DNA of 64,000 nucleotides from Phycisphaerales bacterium (GCA_020247305.1 JADCJE010000045.1:71251-135250); one strand, 5' to 3'. Counted from the stretch's first letter, positions 41,282-50,214 are shown. Numbers and translations are program-made. Notes: a model not told the origin generated them from the letters alone.

Positions 41282-42366
41282 AGCAGTCCTTGGCGTCCGC
41301 TGGCGCGCACGTGCTCGACCAGCGCCTTGAGGTCGTGGGCCTTGTCCTTCGGGCAGACCAGCACGGCGTCGTCGACGGCGACCACGACGAGGTCCTCGAC
41401 GCCGAACAACGCGACGGTGCGGGCGCCGTCGGCGTAGACGATGTTGCCGCGGCTCTGCAGCGCGACGAGGTCGGCGCCGTTGGCGGCGACGGCGACGTTG
41501 CCGTCGCCGTCGGCGGGGGCGATCGCGCCGAGCGCCGGGAAGCTGCCGACGTCGTCCCAACGGATCGGCGCGCGCACGACGGCGACCTGCGGCGCCTTCT
41601 CCATCACGGCGTAGTCGATCGAGCGCTTGGGGGCCTGCAGGAACGCGCGCTGCAGCGCCGCCTTCTCCTTCTTGCGCGCCGCGGCCAGCATGGCGTCGGC
41701 GGCGGCGCCGAGCTCCGCGTCGGCCGCGCGCATGGCGCGCAGGATCGCGTCGACGCGCCAGACGAAGATGCCGCTGTTCCAGAGGAAGCCGCCGGCGCGC
41801 AGGAAGCCCTCGGCGGTGGCGCGGTCGGGCTTCTCGCGGAAGCTGCGCACGGCGAAGCCCGGCAGCGAACGTCCTGCGAGCGGCGCCCCGCACTCGACGT
41901 AGCCGTAGCCGGTCGCCGGGAACGTCGGCGCGATGCCGAACGTGACCAGGGTCGCGCCGTCCTGCGCGATGGCAGCGCCTTCCCGCAGCATCGCCTGGAA
42001 GGCGTCGACCGGTGCGATGACGTGGTCGGCTGGCAGCACGATCATCGTCGCCTCCGGATCGACGGCGGCGATCGTCGCCGCCGCCAGCGCGATGCACGGC
42101 GCAGTGTCGCGGGCCTCGGGTTCGAGCACGAGACGGTCCTTGGGCAGGCTCGGCAGCAGCTTGGTGATCGGCTTGCCGAGGCGCTTGCTCGTCGCCACCC
42201 ACACGTGGTCCTGGTCGCACAGGCCGTCGAGGCGGTCGATGGTGGCCACGATCATCGGCTTGCCGCCGACCAGCGGCAGGAACTGCTTGGGGCGCGCAGC
42301 GCGGCTGGCCGGCCAGAAGCGCGTGCCGGAGCCGCCTGCCATCACGACGGCGTGCAGGGAGGTCAT
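41278..42366 (-). CDS. manC: Mannose-1-phosphate guanylyltransferase
   Basis: MAGGSGTRFWPASR...PKQFL, EPEARDTAP, PADH, FREKP, WNSGIF, SIDYAVME, WDDVGS. Confidence 0.93.
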   Translation of the reverse strand: MTSLHAVVMAGGSGTRFWPASRAARPKQFLPLVGGKPMIVATIDRLDGLCDQDHVWVATSKRLGKPITKLLPSLPKDRLVLEPEARDTAPCIALAAATIAAVDPEATMIVLPADHVIAPVDAFQAMLREGAAIAQDGATLVTFGIAPTFPATGYGYVECGAPLAGRSLPGFAVRSFREKPDRATAEGFLRAGGFLWNSGIFVWRVDAILRAMRAADAELGAAADAMLAAARKKEKAALQRAFLQAPKRSIDYAVMEKAPQVAVVRAPIRWDDVGSFPALGAIAPADGDGNVAVAANGADLVALQSRGNIVYADGARTVALFGVEDLVVVAVDDAVLVCPKDKAHDLKALVEHVRASGRQGLL

Positions 42367-42429
42367 CGTCGAAAGTGTCACCGGTGGCCGCCTCCGGTCA
42401 ACGCCTCGCCGCCGCGGCCGCGATTCGCC

Positions 42430-45400
42430 TCACGCGCCGCCGGTTGGGCGCGGGCGACCGACGGGCGGCACCGGCACCACCGCACGCCGCGCCGGTGCGC
42501 CCTCGTTGAGCCACCGGTTCTCGGCGCGCAGGCCGTTCAGGAAGCCGTAGAGGTGGAACGTCACGATGTTCTGCGCAAGGTAGCTGAGCAGCGGCATGAC
42601 GAACGGATCCGCCGAATCGCCCAGGAGCTTCGCCAGCGTCAACTCGACGTCGAGGTAGCCGTCGAACCCGAGTCGACCGCTGCCGCGGGCCGCCAGCACG
42701 TTGGAGCGCACTTCCAGCCGCGAGAACTCCGCGGCGCCGTTGCGGACCTGCCACGCGAGGTCGAGCGCGTCGAAGTAGGGGCGATCCGACGGCGGCAACT
42801 GCGCGTAGATGGCGGTGAACAAGGGCACCACGCCGAGGTCGGCGCGGTCGAGGCGCAGTTCGCCGGCGGCGGTCGCCCCGACGACGTCGTTGCCGGCGAG
42901 GCGGTCGAGGCGGATGCGGCCGGAGGCGGCGCCGCGGTACGGCGGCTGTCGCCAGCCCGTCGCGCTCAGGAAGCCGAGCACGTCGACCTCGGCGAAGGCG
43001 ACGTCGGCTGCGAGCGCGCCGTCGGGCTCGGCCGCGCCCGGCAGCACGTACTGCACCGCCGGTTGCGCCGGGTCGCCGATGCCGAGGCGACCGCCGTGCA
43101 GTCGGCAGGCGAGGCGCGGGATCGCGATGCGCTCGGCGTCGGCCGCGAACGTCGCGTCGATGTCGGTGAAGGGCTGGCCGAAGAGGCGCAGTCCAGCGCC
43201 TGCGAGGCTGCCGCGCAGGCCGCCGCCCGCGTCCGAGACCGTGCTCTCGGCGATCAGGACGTCACCGGTCAGGCCTTCGACGACGATGCTGTCCGCGCCG
43301 GCGCCGAGCGTGATGTCGAGGCCTTGGACGCGCAGCCGGCCGCCGAGCGTCGTTTCGGTCGGCCCGCCGCCAGCTGGCGTGCGGAAGCGCAGTTGCAAGC
43401 CGTCGATGTCGGTGCGGCCGAGCAACTGGCGCTGCAGCACGGCGCGCTGCAGCGGACCGCTGAACAGGTTGGCGAGGCCGTCGTCGACCGGCACGCCGGT
43501 CGCGTCCACCACGAAGGCGATCTCGCTGCGCAGGTCGGGCGCTGGCAGCGTGCGGATGCGGCCATCGCGCACGCGCACCGGCGCGCCGCCGAGGCGCGCC
43601 TGCAGCGCCGCGAATCTCACCTCGCCGCCGTCGACGTCGAGCACGCCGACCATGCCCTCGGCCGGTCGCGGCAGCATCGGCGCGTCCGACCGCACGTCGC
43701 GCAGGGTCACTTCCAGGCGCAGCGGCGCCCGGTCGTCGCCATCGCGCCGATGCCGGCAGACCAGGTCGACGCGGCCGGAGGGCCGCAGTTGCCGCCACGT
43801 GCCGGCGCCCACTGCGCCGAGGTCCTCCAGCGTGGCGCCGAGCTGCGGGTCGAGTTCGAGGCCGCGCACGACGAACGCGAGTTCCTCGGCGCCGCCGTCG
43901 CCCAGCTCGACCGCTCCCAGAAGCGCCAGTTCGGCTGGCGGCGCGTCCCCATGCGCGAGGCGGCCGCGGACGCCATCGAAGACGATCCGCGTGCCGCGCG
44001 CGACGTCGCCGATGTGGACGCTGCCGGCGAGTCCGTTGGCCGCCCACGGGGCCGCGGGCAGCGCGAGGTCGACGTCGCGCAGCGCCAGCGTCGCGTCGTA
44101 CTGCAGCGGCAGCGCCTCCGCGCTCCGCCAGACGCGCACCGCGCCGTCGAGCGCGCCGCGGGCGGCGCTGCGCTGCCACGGCTCGTCGACTTCGGGCGCG
44201 AGCACGGCGACGGCCGCGCGCAGTTCGTCGTCGAGCGCGACATCGACGACGTCCACGTCGGCGTGGAAGCCGCGTTCGCGCCACGCCGGCTCCGCCAAGG
44301 GCAGGAAGCCGCGCATGCGCAGGCGACCGGGGCCGTGCACGCCGGCGAGATCGAAGCCGACGCCATCGGCGCGCGCGCGCACGTCGCCGCGCAGCCTGCC
44401 GAGCAGGTAGGGGAAGCCCTCCCAGCGCATCGCCGCGTCGGCGAGCGCGATGTCGACTGCCCAGCCGCCGGGCAGGACGCTGCGCGGTCGGATCGTCACG
44501 CGCACGTCGGCGCGGCCGTTCGGCGCCAGCTTGTCGTACAGCCGGCCGTCGTCGCGCAGCAGCGCGCCGAGCGCGTTGCGCAGGTCGGGCGTGAAGGCGA
44601 TGCCGGTCGCGGCGACGTCGACCGAGGTGTCCTCGCCGCCGGGCTTGTCGGTCTCCACGCGGCCGGCGACCCGCACGACGCCGCCGCCGGCGCGTTCGGC
44701 GATCGTCGACACGATGTCGTCGAGCAGCAGGACGCGGTCGCGGAGGCGCACGCGGCCGCTGGCGCTCGCCAGCGGCAGCGGGAAGCCCACGCGGCTGCCC
44801 GGCGCGCCGAAGCCCCGGAAGGTGACGCCGACGTCGCGCAGGCGCAGGTCGAGGTCGGTCGCGCCGCCGCGTTCGTGCGGGTTCTCGACGAAGAGGTCCA
44901 CGTCGCCGCGCCCGGCGGTCGGCTCCAGCGCCGCGACGACCTGGCGACCGGCCTCGAACAAGCGCAGGGCCCGCACGACCTCGGCGTCGATGCGCACGTT
45001 CTCGCCGCGCAGCGCGACGTCGAACTTCGGCGCGCCGTCGACGAGGCGGCCCGCCGCCGTCAGCGCCAGCGCGCCGGCCTCGGTGCGCTGGGTGAGCTGC
45101 AGGCGCGCGCTGCCGCCGGCGTCGGTGGTGGCATGGGCTTGGATCGCGGCGTCCGTCACGAGCGCCGGCAGCGACGGCCCCGACGCGCGCACGCCGTCGA
45201 GGTCGGCCGCGAGGCTGGCGCGCAGTTCGCCGCCGGCCGCGCGTTCGCAGCGCAGCCGCAGCGAGCGCACGCGCGCCGCGAAGGCGAGTTCCGGCGGTGC
45301 GATGCCGAGCCGGCGCAGGACGCTCGCCAGCGCCGCGTCGTCACACGCTTCAGGAGCGAGTTCGGCGGTGACGTCGAGCGCGCCGGTCGCGGGGTCGACG

Positions 45401-45984
45401 ACGCCGGCCAGCGCGATGCCGATCGGCGGTTCGGCGAGGCGGCCGCGCAGCTGCACGGCCAGCCCGGGGCCGTCGCGCCGCGGCACGGCGTCGCCGTTGA
45501 GGTCGGTGACGGCGAACGGCTCGCGGTCGGCCTGCAGGCGCACGCGGATCGACGCGTTGCGCACGGCCATCGCCGGCACGTGGGGCGGGCGCGCCGGCCC
45601 AGCGCCCGCTGCCGACGGTCGGCGCAGCAGGCCGTCCGCGCTGGGCCAGTTCGGGCCGACCTCGATGGCGACGCGATCGAGGCGCACGGCCTGCACGCCG
45701 ATCAGGTCGCCGCCCGCGCCGATCCCGGCGTCGGCCTCGACGCGCGCGACATGGACGGACAGGCCCTGTGCGCTGGCGTCGAGGCGCACGTCGGCGATCT
45801 CGACCTTGCCGGCGCCGAGGTCGATCGCGACCGCCGACACCGTGGCTGGCGCGGCGAGCAGGTCCGCAAGGCCGCGGCGCACGAGGCGGGTGGCGGCGTC
45901 GGTGTCGGCGAGCACGGCCCACGTCGCGGCGGCCAGCGCAGCGAACATCACGGCGGTCAACAGCAGGATGCGGCGCCAACTCAT
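42430..45984 (-). CDS. Large AsmA/YhdP/TamB-like beta-strand repeat protein
   Basis: N-terminal TM anchor RRILLLTAVMFAALAAATWAVL; about 1180 aa of alternating hydrophobic beta-strands; C-terminal GSGRLGFDGYLD...FHLYG. Start at 45984 or 45996. Confidence 0.7.
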   Translation of the reverse strand: MSWRRILLLTAVMFAALAAATWAVLADTDAATRLVRRGLADLLAAPATVSAVAIDLGAGKVEIADVRLDASAQGLSVHVARVEADAGIGAGGDLIGVQAVRLDRVAIEVGPNWPSADGLLRRPSAAGAGPARPPHVPAMAVRNASIRVRLQADREPFAVTDLNGDAVPRRDGPGLAVQLRGRLAEPPIGIALAGVVDPATGALDVTAELAPEACDDAALASVLRRLGIAPPELAFAARVRSLRLRCERAAGGELRASLAADLDGVRASGPSLPALVTDAAIQAHATTDAGGSARLQLTQRTEAGALALTAAGRLVDGAPKFDVALRGENVRIDAEVVRALRLFEAGRQVVAALEPTAGRGDVDLFVENPHERGGATDLDLRLRDVGVTFRGFGAPGSRVGFPLPLASASGRVRLRDRVLLLDDIVSTIAERAGGGVVRVAGRVETDKPGGEDTSVDVAATGIAFTPDLRNALGALLRDDGRLYDKLAPNGRADVRVTIRPRSVLPGGWAVDIALADAAMRWEGFPYLLGRLRGDVRARADGVGFDLAGVHGPGRLRMRGFLPLAEPAWRERGFHADVDVVDVALDDELRAAVAVLAPEVDEPWQRSAARGALDGAVRVWRSAEALPLQYDATLALRDVDLALPAAPWAANGLAGSVHIGDVARGTRIVFDGVRGRLAHGDAPPAELALLGAVELGDGGAEELAFVVRGLELDPQLGATLEDLGAVGAGTWRQLRPSGRVDLVCRHRRDGDDRAPLRLEVTLRDVRSDAPMLPRPAEGMVGVLDVDGGEVRFAALQARLGGAPVRVRDGRIRTLPAPDLRSEIAFVVDATGVPVDDGLANLFSGPLQRAVLQRQLLGRTDIDGLQLRFRTPAGGGPTETTLGGRLRVQGLDITLGAGADSIVVEGLTGDVLIAESTVSDAGGGLRGSLAGAGLRLFGQPFTDIDATFAADAERIAIPRLACRLHGGRLGIGDPAQPAVQYVLPGAAEPDGALAADVAFAEVDVLGFLSATGWRQPPYRGAASGRIRLDRLAGNDVVGATAAGELRLDRADLGVVPLFTAIYAQLPPSDRPYFDALDLAWQVRNGAAEFSRLEVRSNVLAARGSGRLGFDGYLDVELTLAKLLGDSADPFVMPLLSYLAQNIVTFHLYGFLNGLRAENRWLNEGAPARRAVVPVPPVGRPRPTGGA

Positions 45985-45997
45985 CGCGGCGCGCATG

Positions 45998-46165
45998 CTA
46001 GGAGTCGGCGTCACGGATGGCCACGCCGCCCGGCGTGCGTCGACGCGTCGGGGAACTCGCCGCCGGGCTTTGGCGAATCCGCCGATTCGCCTGCGGTCTC
46101 CGGCTTCGTCCCAGCTGCGAATCCTCGCACCGGATCGGCGCGCATGCCGCGCCGCAGACTCCTGG
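45998..46165 (-). mobile_element. MITE-like element, family A, copy 2 (inverted orientation)
   Basis: CTAGGAGTCGGCGTCACGG...GCAGACTCCTGG; interior matches the reverse complement of 10873-11056 (GGCCACGCCGCCCG, GGCGAATC..GATTCGCCTGCGGTC, GCACCGGATCGGCGCGC). Confidence 0.78.
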
Positions 46166-46383
46166 CCACCGCTTCGGCGGGGCCCACGGCGAGGCTCGGC
46201 AGCGGTTCGCGGCGCGTGAGCAAGCCGCGAAACCCCTGAAGACGGCCTCGAAACTGCGTTTTCCGCACGATTTGCCGTTGACACGAAGCCCGCAAATCGC
46301 CAAAAGAACCTCGCGTTCGCGGGAGGCGCGGCACTTTCGCTGCGACCGGGCGAACGAGATTCCTTCCGAATCAGGTCACTCCG

Positions 46384-46587
46384 ATGGCGAAGAAGAACAA
46401 CAAGAAGACCGGCACGACCGGCGATCTCATCATCTCGAAGTCGCGCACGAAGGCGGCGGTCAAGAAGTCGAACGTCTCGTCGGACTTCTACGGCGCGCTC
46501 GACTCGACCGTCCGCAAGATGATCACGGCCGCCGAAGTGCGCGCCGAGGCCAACGGCCGCAAGACGCTCCGCCCGCAGGATCTGTGA
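46384..46587 (+). CDS. Bacterial histone-fold protein (short-alpha3, face-to-face/DUF1931-like) with Lys-rich N-terminal tail
   Basis: LIISKSRTK...NVSSDFYGALD...AAEVRAEANGRKTLRPQDL: histone-fold RKTxxxxD motif at the C-terminus; AGGT SD; GC3-rich codons. Confidence 0.85.
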   Translation: MAKKNNKKTGTTGDLIISKSRTKAAVKKSNVSSDFYGALDSTVRKMITAAEVRAEANGRKTLRPQDL

Positions 46588-46647
46588 TCCGGCAGGACCT
46601 GACGCACGCAACCGCCACGCGGTGACGTGCTGATGGCGAAACGACCC

Positions 46648-46684
46648 GGCTGCGCCGCGAGGCGACGCCGGGTCGCGTCGTTTC
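46648..46684 (+). terminator. Hairpin downstream of the histone gene
   Basis: CGACCCGGC/GCCGGGTCG stem with outer GAAACGAC/GTCGTTTC pairing. Confidence 0.5.
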
Positions 46685-46687
46685 CGG

Positions 46688-46721
46688 GGTTGTCTGTCGC
46701 ATGCGGTTGTCTGTCGCATGC
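46688..46721. repeat. 17-bp exact tandem duplication
   Basis: GGTTGTCTGTCGCATGC present twice in direct succession. Confidence 0.85.
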
Positions 46722-46793
46722 GATCGTCGGGGCCGCCCTGGCATCGGCTGCCGCGCCCGCCGCGCCGCGTCCTGTGACGCTGACGTCGAGGAG

Positions 46794-47579
46794 TCAGGCC
46801 GCGCCGTCCAGGTCGTCGGCGACGCCGAGCGCGGCGAAGGCCGCCCGTTCGCCGGCGAGCATCGTCGCCCGCACGTGGTTGCCGAGTTCCTCCAGGCGCT
46901 CGTCGGTCGCGTCGGCGGGGGCATGGATCGGGTCGCCGAACGTGACGACCAGGCGCGCGAACGGCTTGGGGATCACGAAGCGGTCCCAGCTCCGCAGGCG
47001 CCACGCGCGGTCGACGGCGAGCGCGACGGGCACGATCGGCGCGCCGGTCGCGCGCGCCAGCCATGCGACGCCGGCATTCAGCGCGTGGCGCGGCCCGCGC
47101 GGGCCGTCGGGCGTCAACACGATCGGACCGCCGTCCGCCAGTTCCGCCGCGAGTTCGCGCAGGGCGCGGGCGCCGCCGCGCGACAGCGAGCCGCGCACGA
47201 CGCGGTAGCCGAAGCGCCGGAGCGCCTGGCGGGCGAGGTCGCCGTCGTCGCTCGGCGACACGAGCACGGCGATGCCCCGGCCGCGATGGCCGCGCAGCGG
47301 CATCGCCGCGAGCATGCGGCCGTGCCAGAGCGTGAGCAGGGCGGGGGCGCCGCGCTGCAGCAGGTCGCGGCCGGGGCCCGGCGCGACGCGCACGCGCCAC
47401 GTCGCCGCCAGGACGCGCAGGGCCGCAGGGGCGGCGACGGCGAGCAGCGCGGCGCCTGCGGCGCGCCGCCAGCGGCGCCAGCGTGCCAGCCAGGGGACGT
47501 TGCGGCCCGCGCGCTCGCGTTCGGCGGCAGCCCGCCGCTGCTCGTCGCGGCGTTGTCGGCGGCGGTCGCGCGCGTTCAT
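46794..47579 (-). CDS. DUF374 / lysophospholipid acyltransferase-family protein
   Basis: LWHGR, VSPSDDG, VVRGS, TPDGPRGP, SWDRFVIPKPF. Confidence 0.85.
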   Translation of the reverse strand: MNARDRRRQRRDEQRRAAAERERAGRNVPWLARWRRWRRAAGAALLAVAAPAALRVLAATWRVRVAPGPGRDLLQRGAPALLTLWHGRMLAAMPLRGHRGRGIAVLVSPSDDGDLARQALRRFGYRVVRGSLSRGGARALRELAAELADGGPIVLTPDGPRGPRHALNAGVAWLARATGAPIVPVALAVDRAWRLRSWDRFVIPKPFARLVVTFGDPIHAPADATDERLEELGNHVRATMLAGERAAFAALGVADDLDGAA

Positions 47580-47633
47580 GCGACCTCCCGACCGTGGGAT
47601 CGGCCGCGGCGGGGCTGCGCGGTGGCCACCGGT

Positions 47634-47801
47634 CCGTGCGGTTGCCTCATGGAACGCGCGCCGATCCGGTGCGTGGCTTCGCGTCTGGGGCGAAGCCGAC
47701 GACCGGAGGCGAAACGGTGGATTCGCCGAGGATCGGCGGCGAGTCCCCGGTCGCGAAGACGCGCGTCGGGCGGCGTGGCCTTTCGTGGCGCAGGCTCCTA
47801 G
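47634..47801 (+). mobile_element. MITE-like element, family A, copy 3 (left end degenerate)
   Basis: ACGCGCGCCGATCCGGTGCGTGG, GGGGCGAAGCCGACGACCG, GGTGGATTCGCCGAG, GGCGGCGAGTCCCCGG, GGGCGGCGTGGCC shared with copy 1; ends GCAGGCTCCTAG. Confidence 0.78.
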
Positions 47802-48094
47802 CTCCGCGGCGGCGGGCCGGCGTAGGCCTTGCGCGTCGCCTGCTGTTCGTCGCGCAACAGCTTGGCGGCGGCCAGCACGTGCGGGTGCAGGCCAGCGCCG
47901 CCGGTCGTGTCGAAGTGGGCCAGCAGGGCCTGCCGCATGCGCGGGTCCCAGTAGTGGCGCAGGTGGTTGCGCACGCCTTCCTCGCGCTGGCCGTGCGGGT
48001 ACGGCGCGAAGAAGTCGCCGATCTGGTTGGCCATCGCCACCAGCCGCTCGATGGCGATCACCGCGCCGCCGCCGTCGCCGTGTGCGGCGCTCAT
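47798..48094 (-). CDS. fdsD: NAD-dependent formate dehydrogenase delta subunit
   Basis: LVAMANQIGDFF...HLRHYWDPRMR is the FdsD signature. Confidence 0.9.
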   Translation of the reverse strand: MSAAHGDGGGAVIAIERLVAMANQIGDFFAPYPHGQREEGVRNHLRHYWDPRMRQALLAHFDTTGGAGLHPHVLAAAKLLRDEQQATRKAYAGPPPRS

Positions 48095-50214
48095 GCCCGC
48101 GCTCCTGCCCGCGCGCGGGCCGATGCCGGCGCGTTCGCCGGGACCTTGGCGACCTCGACTGCCGTCACCTTGTACTCGGGGCAGTTGGTCGCCCAGTCCG
48201 ACAGGTCGCTGGTCACCGCGTTCGCCTTGCTCTGGACGAAGTGGAACGTCGTGTACACGACGCCCGGACTGACCTTGTCGCTGATGCGGGCGTGCAGGCG
48301 CGTCTCGCCGTAGCGGCTGGTGATCGCCACGAGTTCGCCGTCGCGGATGCCGCGCGCCTCGGCGTCCTGGCGGTGGATGTCCAGCAGGTCCTCGTCGTGC
48401 CACGCGACGTTGCCGGTGCGGCGGGTCTGCGTGCCGACGTTGTACTGCGACAGGATGCGGCCGGTGGTCAGCAGCAGCGGGTGCCGCTCGTCGACGCGCT
48501 CCGTCGTCGGCACGTAGCCGGTCAGCATGAAGTTGGCCTTGCCGCGCGGGAACGTCTGCGTGTGCAGCACCTCGGTGCCCTCCGGCGCCTGCGGGTTGCA
48601 CGGCCACTGCACCGAGCCGCAGCGCTCGATCAGCGCGAAGCTCATGCCCTGGTAGGCCGGCGACAGGCGCGCGACCTCGTCGAGGATCTGCGACGGGTGG
48701 TCGTAGTGCAGCGGGTAGCCCATCGCGTTGATGAGCTTGACGGTGATCTCCCAGTCCTCGAGCCCGGCGAGCGGCGCCACGACCTTGCGCACCATGCTGA
48801 CGCGGCGCTCGGCGTTGGTGAACGTGCCGTTCTTCTCCAGCGAGCTGGAGCCGGGCAGGAACACGTGCGCGTACTTCGCCGTCTCGTTGAGGAACAGGTC
48901 CTGCACGATCACGCACTCCATCGCCTTCATGGCCGCGACGATGTGGTTCATGTTCGGGTCGCTCTGCACCGGGTCCTCGCCCTGGATGTAGATCGCCTTG
49001 AACGTCCCGGCGAGCGCGGCGTCGAACATGTTCGGCAGGCGCAGGCCCGGCTCGGGGTCGAGCGGCAGGCCCCAGTCCTGCTCGAAGGTCGCGCGCACGG
49101 CGTCGTCGGTGACGAAGCGGTAGCCGGTGAGCATGTGCGGCCAGCTGCCGAGGCAGCTGCCGCCCTGCACGTTGCCCTGACCGCGCAGCGGGTTCACGCC
49201 GACGCCTTCGCGGCCGAGCATGCCGCAGGCCAGCGCGAGGTTGCCCAGGCACATGACGCCGGTCGAACCCTGGCTGTGCTCGGTGACTCCGAGTCCGTAG
49301 TAGATCGTGCTGCGCGGGCCCTTGGCGTAGGCGCGCGCGGCCGCGCGGATGTCGGCCGGGTCGAGGCCCGCCTCCGGGCCGACGACCTCGGGGGCGTAGC
49401 GCCCGTCGGCGACCAGAGCCCGCCATTGCTCGAACTCCGCCGGGTGGCAGCGCGCCGCGATGAACGCGGCGTCGTGCAGACCCTCGGTGACGACGACGTG
49501 CGCGAGGCTGTTGAGCACCAGCACGTTGGTGCCCGGCCGCAGCGCGAGGTGCACCGTCGCCTTGCAGTGCGCCGACTCGGCGGTCTCGGTGCGGCGCGGG
49601 TCGACGACCAGCAGCCTGGCGCCCTGGCGCACGCGGCGCTTGAGCAGCGAGCCGAACACCGGGTGGCCCTCGGTCGGGTTGGCGCCGACGACGAGGATCA
49701 CGTCCGCCTGCAGGATCGAGTCGAAGTGCTGGCTCGCCGCGCCGGCGCCGAGCGTCGCCGACAGGCCGAACTGCGTCGGCGAGTGGCAGATGCGCGAGCA
49801 GTTGTCGATGTTGTTGTTGCGCAGCGCGACGCGCGCGAACTTCTGCATCAGGAAGATCTCTTCGTTGGTGCAGCGCGACGACGACACCGCGCCGACCGAG
49901 CCGCGGCCGTGCTGCGCCTGGATGCGCTGCATCTCGGCGGCGGCGTGCGCGATCGCGACGTCCCACGACACCTCGCGCCACGTCTGGTCGATCGACGCCC
50001 GGATCATCGGCGTGCGCACGCGGTCGGGGTGCCGGTAGTAGTCGAAGGCGAAGCGTCCCTTGACGCAGGCGTGGCCGTGGTTGGCCTTGCCTTCCTTCCA
50101 CGGGGTCATGCGCACGATCTCGCCGCCGATGGTCTCGGCCTTGAAGCCGCAGCCGACGCCGCAGTAGGCGCAGGTGGTGACGACGGAACCGTCAGGCTTT
50201 CGGGGATTGGGCAC
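48091..50214 (-). CDS. fdsA: Formate dehydrogenase alpha subunit, molybdopterin catalytic part (split FdsA, C-terminal portion)
   Basis: TTCAYCGVGC...CVKGRF, NCSRICHSPT (Cys ligand), NPLRGQGNVQG, PEYKVTAV; AAGGAGG 8 nt before the GTG. Confidence 0.92.
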   Translation of the reverse strand: MPNPRKPDGSVVTTCAYCGVGCGFKAETIGGEIVRMTPWKEGKANHGHACVKGRFAFDYYRHPDRVRTPMIRASIDQTWREVSWDVAIAHAAAEMQRIQAQHGRGSVGAVSSSRCTNEEIFLMQKFARVALRNNNIDNCSRICHSPTQFGLSATLGAGAASQHFDSILQADVILVVGANPTEGHPVFGSLLKRRVRQGARLLVVDPRRTETAESAHCKATVHLALRPGTNVLVLNSLAHVVVTEGLHDAAFIAARCHPAEFEQWRALVADGRYAPEVVGPEAGLDPADIRAAARAYAKGPRSTIYYGLGVTEHSQGSTGVMCLGNLALACGMLGREGVGVNPLRGQGNVQGGSCLGSWPHMLTGYRFVTDDAVRATFEQDWGLPLDPEPGLRLPNMFDAALAGTFKAIYIQGEDPVQSDPNMNHIVAAMKAMECVIVQDLFLNETAKYAHVFLPGSSSLEKNGTFTNAERRVSMVRKVVAPLAGLEDWEITVKLINAMGYPLHYDHPSQILDEVARLSPAYQGMSFALIERCGSVQWPCNPQAPEGTEVLHTQTFPRGKANFMLTGYVPTTERVDERHPLLLTTGRILSQYNVGTQTRRTGNVAWHDEDLLDIHRQDAEARGIRDGELVAITSRYGETRLHARISDKVSPGVVYTTFHFVQSKANAVTSDLSDWATNCPEYKVTAVEVAKVPANAPASARARAGARA

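Follow-up and report, generated by a model that had tools for sequence, protein, structure and literature searches.

A face-to-face bacterial histone carrying a short, lysine-rich N-terminal tail in an uncultured Planctomycetota bacterium

The window analyzed here, a stretch of 64,000 nucleotides from an uncultured Planctomycetota bacterium, carries on its plus strand a small gene for a basic, 67-aa protein of 7.3 kDa that, upon translation, begins with MAKKNNKKTGTTG, contains NVSSDFYGALD and ends in RAEANGRKTLRPQDL. The gene, the parts of its product, the signals flanking it, and the span covered by RNA are as follows, in window coordinates.

46278-46283, plus strand: TTGACA, the likely -35 promoter box of the histone gene, read from the sequence and the conservation of GTTGACA
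46301-46306, plus strand: CAAAAG, a weak -10-like hexamer 17 nt past the -35 box, tentatively read from the sequence
46314-46356, plus strand: predicted 5′ leader stem-loop, from the MFE fold of 46312-46390
46320-46645, strand taken from the gene (plus), as the contigs show none: span covered by assembled RNA contigs from three freshwater metatranscriptome runs (X2, X3, X9)
46384-46587, plus strand: histone coding sequence, 67 aa, from sequence, homologues and composition
46384-46422, plus strand: Lys-rich disordered tail (codons 1-13; four Lys, no acidic residue), from AF2 pLDDT and alignment
46423-46584, plus strand: alpha3-truncated histone fold (codons 14-67) in the AF2 model, with alpha1 at 19-28, alpha2 at 33-56, loop 2 with R59-K-T61, and alpha3 at 64-66
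46604-46682, plus strand: two GC-rich 3′ hairpins (46604-46630, and 46632-46682 with its core stem at 46642-46675) followed by an interrupted U-tract, from folding

On one side, the histone gene is divergent from a minus-strand gene at 42433-46029 that encodes a large protein of ~1190 aa (from MRAAMSWRRILLL...), whose N-terminal segment is hydrophobic and for which no Pfam family was found at E ≤ 0.001. On the other side, it is convergent with a minus-strand gene at 46794-47579 encoding a DUF374 protein (PF04028, E 1.9e-25). Also on the minus strand, at 48091-50214, lies a gene for a molybdopterin oxidoreductase with Fe4S4, molybdopterin and dinucleotide-binding domains, the product of which looks like a formate dehydrogenase alpha subunit. 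The order of large ORF, histone and DUF374 gene is kept in two genomes of the same genus and one of the same family, and is absent at the histone loci of the other eight relatives compared. Since it is kept in these three close relatives only, the gene order is uninformative on function.

The window, at 73.2% GC, is rich in long spurious open-reading frames on both strands. Two of these, of 1649 aa (plus) and 1656 aa (minus), overlap at 41290-47400, cross several real genes, and are artefacts of the 73% GC content; the 1656-aa frame passes through the histone gene. The idea that the 67-aa frame is a GC-rich artefact of the same kind was rejected by its codon-position signal (GC3 95.5%, GC1 49%, GC2 46%) and by its 1283 homologues at E ≤ 1e-3, mostly 66-74 aa long, in a protein collection clustered at 90%. 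A first-pass annotation, made from the sequence alone, had described a stand-alone, basic 67-aa ORF at this position, and the translation, the GC3 value and a pI of 10.4 bear this out. A start downstream of the tail, which the same annotation had raised as a concern, was likewise rejected, as codons 2-45 contain no start codon; the first in-frame ATG, GTG or TTG after codon 1 is codon 46, deep inside alpha2, while upstream a stop at 46279 closes the frame and none of these three codons occurs between it and 46384. With no alternative start codon giving the fold, any chain that contains the fold must also contain the tail. The gene is present as a single copy in its own genome (4.93 Mb, 219 contigs, 92.6% complete), in which a sequence search together with PF00808 and PF09123 profile searches found no second histone paralogue.

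Upstream of the gene, a perfect TTGACA at 46278 lacking a convincing -10 box had been noted, and both halves of that description held. The region upstream of the gene was aligned with those of eight relatives (two of the same genus, two of the same family, and four of the same order). GTTGACA is found 95-120 nt upstream of the ATG in eight of the nine aligned sequences, surrounded by flanks that have diverged, and is absent from the remaining relative within the 108 nt upstream that were taken. This conserved box, a candidate promoter element of the histone gene, is a new observation here. At the spacing of CAAAAG the relatives carry CATTCT, GATTGT, GAACGT or AAACTG in the alignment, and a sigma-70 consensus scan returned zero sigma-70-type sites, with CAAAAG failing its criteria, suggesting that this hexamer is a weak -10 box at best. 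The SD sequence of the first-pass annotation is there to the extent of an AGG ~9 nt before the ATG, which consists of these three letters and is not conserved in relatives.

The predicted leader stem-loop does not stand out by folding energy (z = -0.61 vs shuffles, not significant), its outer stem GUUCGC/GCGAAC is kept in four of five close relatives, and compensatory changes occur in two of its 15 predicted pairs, both of them inner pairs in a single relative. It could be a 5′ stabilizing hairpin at the start of the presumed histone mRNA. At the 3′ end, a downstream hairpin had also been claimed, and hairpins indeed fold there with z = -2.91, a value matched by one of 200 shuffles; by our reading of the alignment, the second stem is kept in a same-genus relative with both ends changed from G-C to A-U. 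They are not followed by a clean T-run, and a terminator consensus scan called no plus-strand terminator; with their interrupted U-tract, the hairpins are a likely terminator of the histone gene.

RNA data from public libraries cover the gene. Each of the 24 RNA runs listed contains 7-8% of the words sampled from 45000-48000, a stretch of 3001 bases, and the contigs of four of them were aligned. Three of the four, X2, X3 and X9, are lake or freshwater metatranscriptomes from three studies, and their matching contigs are short and lie on the histone gene only. The X2 contig covers 46324-46603 (280 nt, 2 other letters) and the X3 contig 46327-46645 (319 nt, 2 other letters), while X9 gave contigs at 46320-46458 (0 other letters) and 46429-46589 (2) as well as a divergent one at 46389-46458 (6). 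Read by codon, the in-ORF difference of X2 and X3 at 46551 is synonymous, and those in the second X9 piece comprise S41 to A and one synonymous change. The fourth run, X1, yielded scattered pieces only, at 90-99% identity, likely from relatives. The contigs start at 46320, 46324 and 46327, which is 57-64 nt before the ATG, inside or just past the 5′ arm of the leader stem-loop and a few bases past the transcription start (~46313) expected for a promoter at TTGACA. Contigs of this kind indicate presence only and give neither the strand nor the level nor the real ends of a transcript, and DNA can occur in RNA libraries; the neighbouring genes have no contig cover in X2, X3 and X9, which cannot rank expression. 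The confinement of the RNA contigs of X2, X3 and X9 to the histone gene is a new observation here and gives a weak hint of a monocistronic, well-expressed histone mRNA. In the text of Hocher et al. (2023, PMC10627809), expression profiles for Planctomycetota are described as not available.

The family to which this protein belongs is large. Some homologues carry the source names 'DUF1931 domain-containing protein [Planctomycetota]' or 'histone H3/H4', and there are 157 cluster representatives at 50% identity. A match is present in 121 of 301 sampled genomes of the phylum, and a one-genome-per-species collection contains 377 matching stretches, the best 80 of which are all in MAGs, mostly labelled Planctomycetota. 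Nine relatives at 66-72% identity are in MAGs labelled Methylomirabilota/NC10, Eisenbacteria or Krumholzibacteriia; either the family has spread beyond the phylum or these labels or bins are wrong.

The histone assignment rests chiefly on comparison with solved structures. With the single sequence, phmmer matched HTkC (9f2c) at E 8.2e-5 and HLp (9qt0) at E 0.047 in the PDB, and with a profile of 35 homologues these values improved to E 2.7e-8 and E 5e-5, the sole other profile matches being two CENP-T histone folds, both at E > 1. HBb structures are present in the PDB, and neither the single sequence nor the profile matched an HBb chain there at E ≤ 10. Neither Pfam nor NCBIfam gave a match above threshold for the 67-aa protein. 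The first-pass annotation had placed it with the DUF1931 type, which is not supported: Pfam DUF1931 (PF09123) scores 14.4 bits (E 0.046), below its gathering cut-off of 21.8, over model positions 13-53 of 138, and a genome-wide search with this family gave 11.5 bits at the histone locus. PF00808 (CBFD_NFYB_HMF) and PF00125 are not among the Pfam matches at E ≤ 10, and PF00808 gave no match at the locus. The 10-residue alpha3 of nucleosomal archaeal and eukaryotic histones is lacking; alpha3 here is one turn, with helix 64-66 as the last element before the chain ends in ...RPQDL.

The AF2 monomer was predicted with a mean pLDDT of 66.9 and a pTM of 0.38, with pLDDT < 50 at residues 1-17, a moderate confidence that is not surprising because an obligate dimer is expected. 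The top four Foldseek matches of this model are HTkC and HLp (probability 0.92-0.63), and the other hits listed are all histone-fold chains, with a best E of only 0.08 and none at E ≤ 0.001. Given these weak monomer and Foldseek scores, we relied on the sequence profiles and on a multimer model. Taken together, the profile, the Foldseek matches, the AF2 model and the invariance of R59, T61 and D66 in all 35 aligned homologues support the earlier reading of a histone fold from its RKTxxxxD loop 2/alpha3 motif, present here as R59-K-T61-L-R-P-Q-D66, and a missing histone-fold prediction, the outcome named as fatal to that reading, did not arise.

Within this fold family, alpha3-truncated histones split into FtF (face-to-face), bacterial dimer and smaller groups, as described by Schwab et al. 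(2024, PMC11390915). In the FtF logo of that paper, R48 and N52 (R41/N45 in D4GZE0) are dimer-dimer residues within a pattern N-x-R-x-T-xxxx-D; FtF histones form a torus tetramer, and the bacterial dimers (the HBb/Bd0055 group) lack R48 and N52 (PMC11390915). The equivalents in the protein described here (HLp R49/N53) are R53 and N57, both invariant along with the motif residues in 35 of 35 homologues. On the sequence and model tests, the protein is an FtF histone and not an HBb-type dimer, and its gene is a genuine bacterial histone gene of the FtF type. The short-alpha3, face-to-face classification of the first-pass annotation is thus borne out by the conservation of R53 and N57, the one-turn alpha3, and the four-copy model described below, and the relation to Bdellovibrio Bd0055 that it also proposed turns out to be distant, since HBb forms a separate bacterial dimer category that lacks R48/N52 and gave no PDB match at E ≤ 10.

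The fold is preceded by the Lys-rich tail, which is less conserved than the fold (mean pairwise identity 0.55 vs 0.82) and is held to a pattern. All 35 aligned sequences have K4 and K7, conservation of M1, A2 and K5 reaches at least 90%, and the tails are 11-20 aa long with 4-8 K+R and at most one acidic residue. Starts resembling MAAKK, MAKK or MAARK are found in 109 of the 120 near homologues listed, and such a start is contained in 117 of the 120. A MAAKK-type motif is contained in 44 of the 150 cluster representatives listed (of 157), and the most distant representatives, 55-56 aa long and starting with MAD, have no such tail. Many apparently long forms contain an internal MAAKK and were probably called from starts too far upstream. 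In five representatives the same fold follows a tail of ~30-76 residues built from K/A/R/T repeats, which brings to mind tails of the H1-like or AKKA-repeat kind. The alignment indicates that the tail is real and conserved, and dispels the concern that it might not be kept in relatives. Contrary to the first-pass annotation, it is not unusual for the FtF group: both the basic tails of FtF histones in bacteria and the occurrence of FtF histones in Planctomycetota were already published (Schwab et al. 2024, PMC11390915), while the clade-wide MAAKK start seems not to be spelled out in the main text of that paper. Our preferred reading is that the tail acts as a disordered electrostatic DNA-binding arm.

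Conservation of the tail could also have a cause in the mRNA, with the MAAKK..KK start kept mainly because A-rich early codons, in the GC-rich genome of what would be a highly expressed gene, leave the initiation region open and raise translation, and the tail being partly a by-product. By our own count, codons 2-8 are 43% GC vs 73.2% for the window; conservation is strongest in the first 5-8 codons; and the SD is not conserved in relatives, so that initiation may depend on an open start region. We consider this reading unlikely, since the K/A/R-rich tails of relatives reach 20-76 residues, far past the initiation region, and codon 2 varies synonymously (GCG, GCT, GCA) with the residues kept. 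The retention of net positive charge, with at most one acidic residue per tail, is likewise a protein-level property.

A further reading, which would be compatible with the main explanation, takes the tail as a regulated modification site, a 'histone code' in which K3/K4 and K7/K8 would be acetylated or methylated, or Thr phosphorylated, tuning DNA binding. The invariant and near-invariant lysines fit such a role, the MAAKK/MAARK N-terminus recurs across tail lengths from ~12 to ~76 residues, and Lys acetylation has been published for other bacterial nucleoid proteins (HBsu). The Ser and Thr residues of the tail do not fit it, as they number from 0 to 4 across the 35 sequences, are replaced by A, G or P, and include no conserved Thr, which weakens the Thr part of the idea. 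No acetyltransferase, deacetylase or kinase gene adjoins the histone gene, whose neighbours are the DUF374 gene and that of the large protein with no Pfam match, and the neighbourhood itself is kept only in the three close relatives; a literature search for tail modification of bacterial histones, judged by titles and the beginnings of abstracts, found none. Tail modification is speculation and, as an explanation of the tail, distinctly unlikely. Its more specific form, in which MAAKK(x)KK at the N-terminus of Planctomycetota FtF histones would be a site conserved in position and recognized by an enzyme (for Lys acetylation or methylation, or for N-terminal methylation after Met removal) and would switch the protein between tight and loose DNA binding, we regard as quite improbable. 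If true, such a switch would give bacteria an equivalent of histone-tail regulation, evolved independently of that in eukaryotes.

The four-copy multimer model bears on how the fold assembles, a question that the first-pass annotation had framed as dimer versus face-to-face tetramer. Three runs scored 0.89, 0.89 and 0.87 vs 0.00 for the best control, with at least 89% contact agreement between runs, a partner pLDDT of at least 83, and a pLDDT of 83-86 in the tetramer. The mark applied was calibrated on two copies, not four; 20 of 30 proteins solved as pairs passed it, as did one of 23 solved as single chains. In the model, the scored copy forms a handshake dimer with one copy and meets another at the FtF interface (residues 52-53, 56-57 and 63-65). 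These contacts are the ones listed for the scored partner only and ring closure is not seen directly; the interface residues listed include none from the tail (residues 1-13). The score favours the face-to-face tetramer and indicates likeness to it, and it may reflect recall of the solved HTkC (9F2C) and HLp (9QT0) tetramers.

The residues that hold HLp together provide a second line of evidence. HLp is reported to be a tetramer in solution via R49, S52, N53, R55, T61 and F63, to have an R55-D62 clamp, and to wrap ~60 bp of DNA, contacting it through A13, S14, K15, K17, K21, T27, G29, T56 and T57 (Hu et al. 2025, PMC12701072). We mapped these positions through the phmmer alignment, with the numbering of the paper equal to the chain index minus 2, as checked on V16, I20, L35, L39, L42, L47 and F63. 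The tetramer residues correspond to R53, A56, N57, R59, Q65 and L67 and the clamp Asp to D66, so that one tetramer contact, S52, is not kept (A56 here). By homology to HLp and HTkC, two chains would thus form a handshake dimer, and two dimers would join into a torus tetramer, meeting at the alpha2 end, at loop 2 and at the alpha3 turn (R53, N57, R59, Q65, L67), with a predicted R59-D66 clamp fixing loop 2.

A protein that acts instead as a dimer, bending or coating DNA like HBb (Bd0055) in place of wrapping it as a tetramer, would share the alpha3-truncated fold family and RKT motif seen here, and the tetramer prediction may reflect recall of solved structures. Bacterial dimers lack R48 and N52 (PMC11390915), the equivalents of which are invariant here, the model interface as listed uses exactly R53 and N57, and the PDB searches matched no HBb chain at E ≤ 10, making this alternative very improbable.

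Returning to the tetramer, the nine DNA contacts of HLp correspond to K19, S20, R21, K23, K27, V31, S33, K60 and T61. K19, R21, K23, K60 and T61 are invariant (35 of 35), S20 and K27 are at least 90% conserved, and T27 and G29 of HLp are not kept, being V31 and S33 here. Basic residues are conserved where HLp contacts DNA, and by homology the protein would bind and wrap DNA non-specifically, with sequence-independent contacts on the outer ring at K19, S20, R21, K23, K27, K60 and T61 and with DNA wound around the tetramer (~60 bp in HLp). The disordered 13-residue tail would most likely add a non-specific electrostatic grip or bridge neighbouring DNA. A histone-fold protein that does not bind DNA, such as a protein-protein scaffold, has precedents in the histone folds of TFIID, SAGA and CENP-TSWX, not all of which contact DNA (PMC10627809), and is extremely improbable here in view of the pI of 10.4, the excess of 15 K+R over 6 D+E, and the basic, invariant residues at positions matching the HLp DNA contacts.

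The histone probably shares its nucleoid with other proteins, as the same genome contains three HU/IHF-family (PF00216) matches above the Pfam cut-off, all outside the window.

C183 of the same genome (G000), 105913-106185, strand not given: HU/IHF-family match, PF00216
C160, 167292-167558, strand not given: HU/IHF-family match, PF00216
C142, 3013-3264, strand not given: HU/IHF-family match, PF00216

As HU-family genes coexist with the histone gene, the histone, which may be abundant, need not be the main nucleoid protein, unlike in Leptospira.

The best explanation of the locus, to which we assign a probability of about 0.85, is a bacterial FtF histone of the alpha3-truncated family that would assemble, bind DNA and use its tail as proposed above, and that would be expressed from its own transcription unit, with the conserved TTGACA box upstream, ~60-70 nt of leader and a terminating hairpin, transcribed in lake communities. 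To our knowledge, bacterial histones have been characterized only in 2023-2025, in Bdellovibrio and Leptospira. Publications of these years already cover the fold of the family, its tetramer, its wrapping of DNA, its basic tails and its presence in Planctomycetota, and the histone described here is an uncharacterized member whose locus leaves the present picture of the FtF histone family unchanged; for Planctomycetota histones, the published reports, to the extent that their text was available, give presence only. What the locus offers is a clean example, in single copy, that has every FtF signature residue, a conserved candidate promoter box, an initial hint that it is transcribed in lake communities, and a clade-wide MAAKK start, making the protein a reasonable candidate for recombinant work on the role of basic tails in bacterial histones.

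Among the closest known systems are the DUF1931 proteins (PF09123; pseudodimeric histones such as Aquifex aeolicus Aq_328), with weak similarity of our protein to one half of the model; DUF1931 proper consists of doublets and is described as a cluster well separated from FtF histones (PMC12701072). HBb/Bd0055 of Bdellovibrio bacteriovorus is likewise small, basic and alpha3-truncated, with the RKT motif, and differs in falling into a sequence cluster of its own, in which the FtF dimer-dimer residues are missing and for which only dimers are predicted (PMC11390915). The best match in the PDB, at a profile E of 2.7e-8, a Foldseek probability of 0.92 and 36-38% identity, is HTkC of Thermococcus kodakarensis (PDB 9F2C), an archaeal protein of 59 aa that shares the N-x-R-x-T-xxxx-D pattern and assembles into a torus tetramer; it lacks a basic tail, archaeal FtF histones being generally tail-less (PMC11390915). 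HLp of Leptospira perolatii (PDB 9QT0/9QT1/9QT2; PMC12701072) has ~34% identity to our protein over the fold in Foldseek and a profile E of 5e-5, with a loop 1 that is two residues longer and a disordered N-terminus of ~6-7 residues vs 13-17 with four lysines here. Leptospira is described as lacking HU, in contrast to the three HU-family matches in the present genome, and the SMC/MAP/DUF350 neighbourhood described for hlp (PMC12701072) is not seen among the three ORFs nearest to this histone gene. Both proteins have one histone fold in ~63-67 aa, and they share a one-turn alpha3, the residues R49/N53/R55 (here R53/N57/R59), the RD clamp, basic DNA-contact positions in alpha1, and a disordered N-terminus (PMC12701072).
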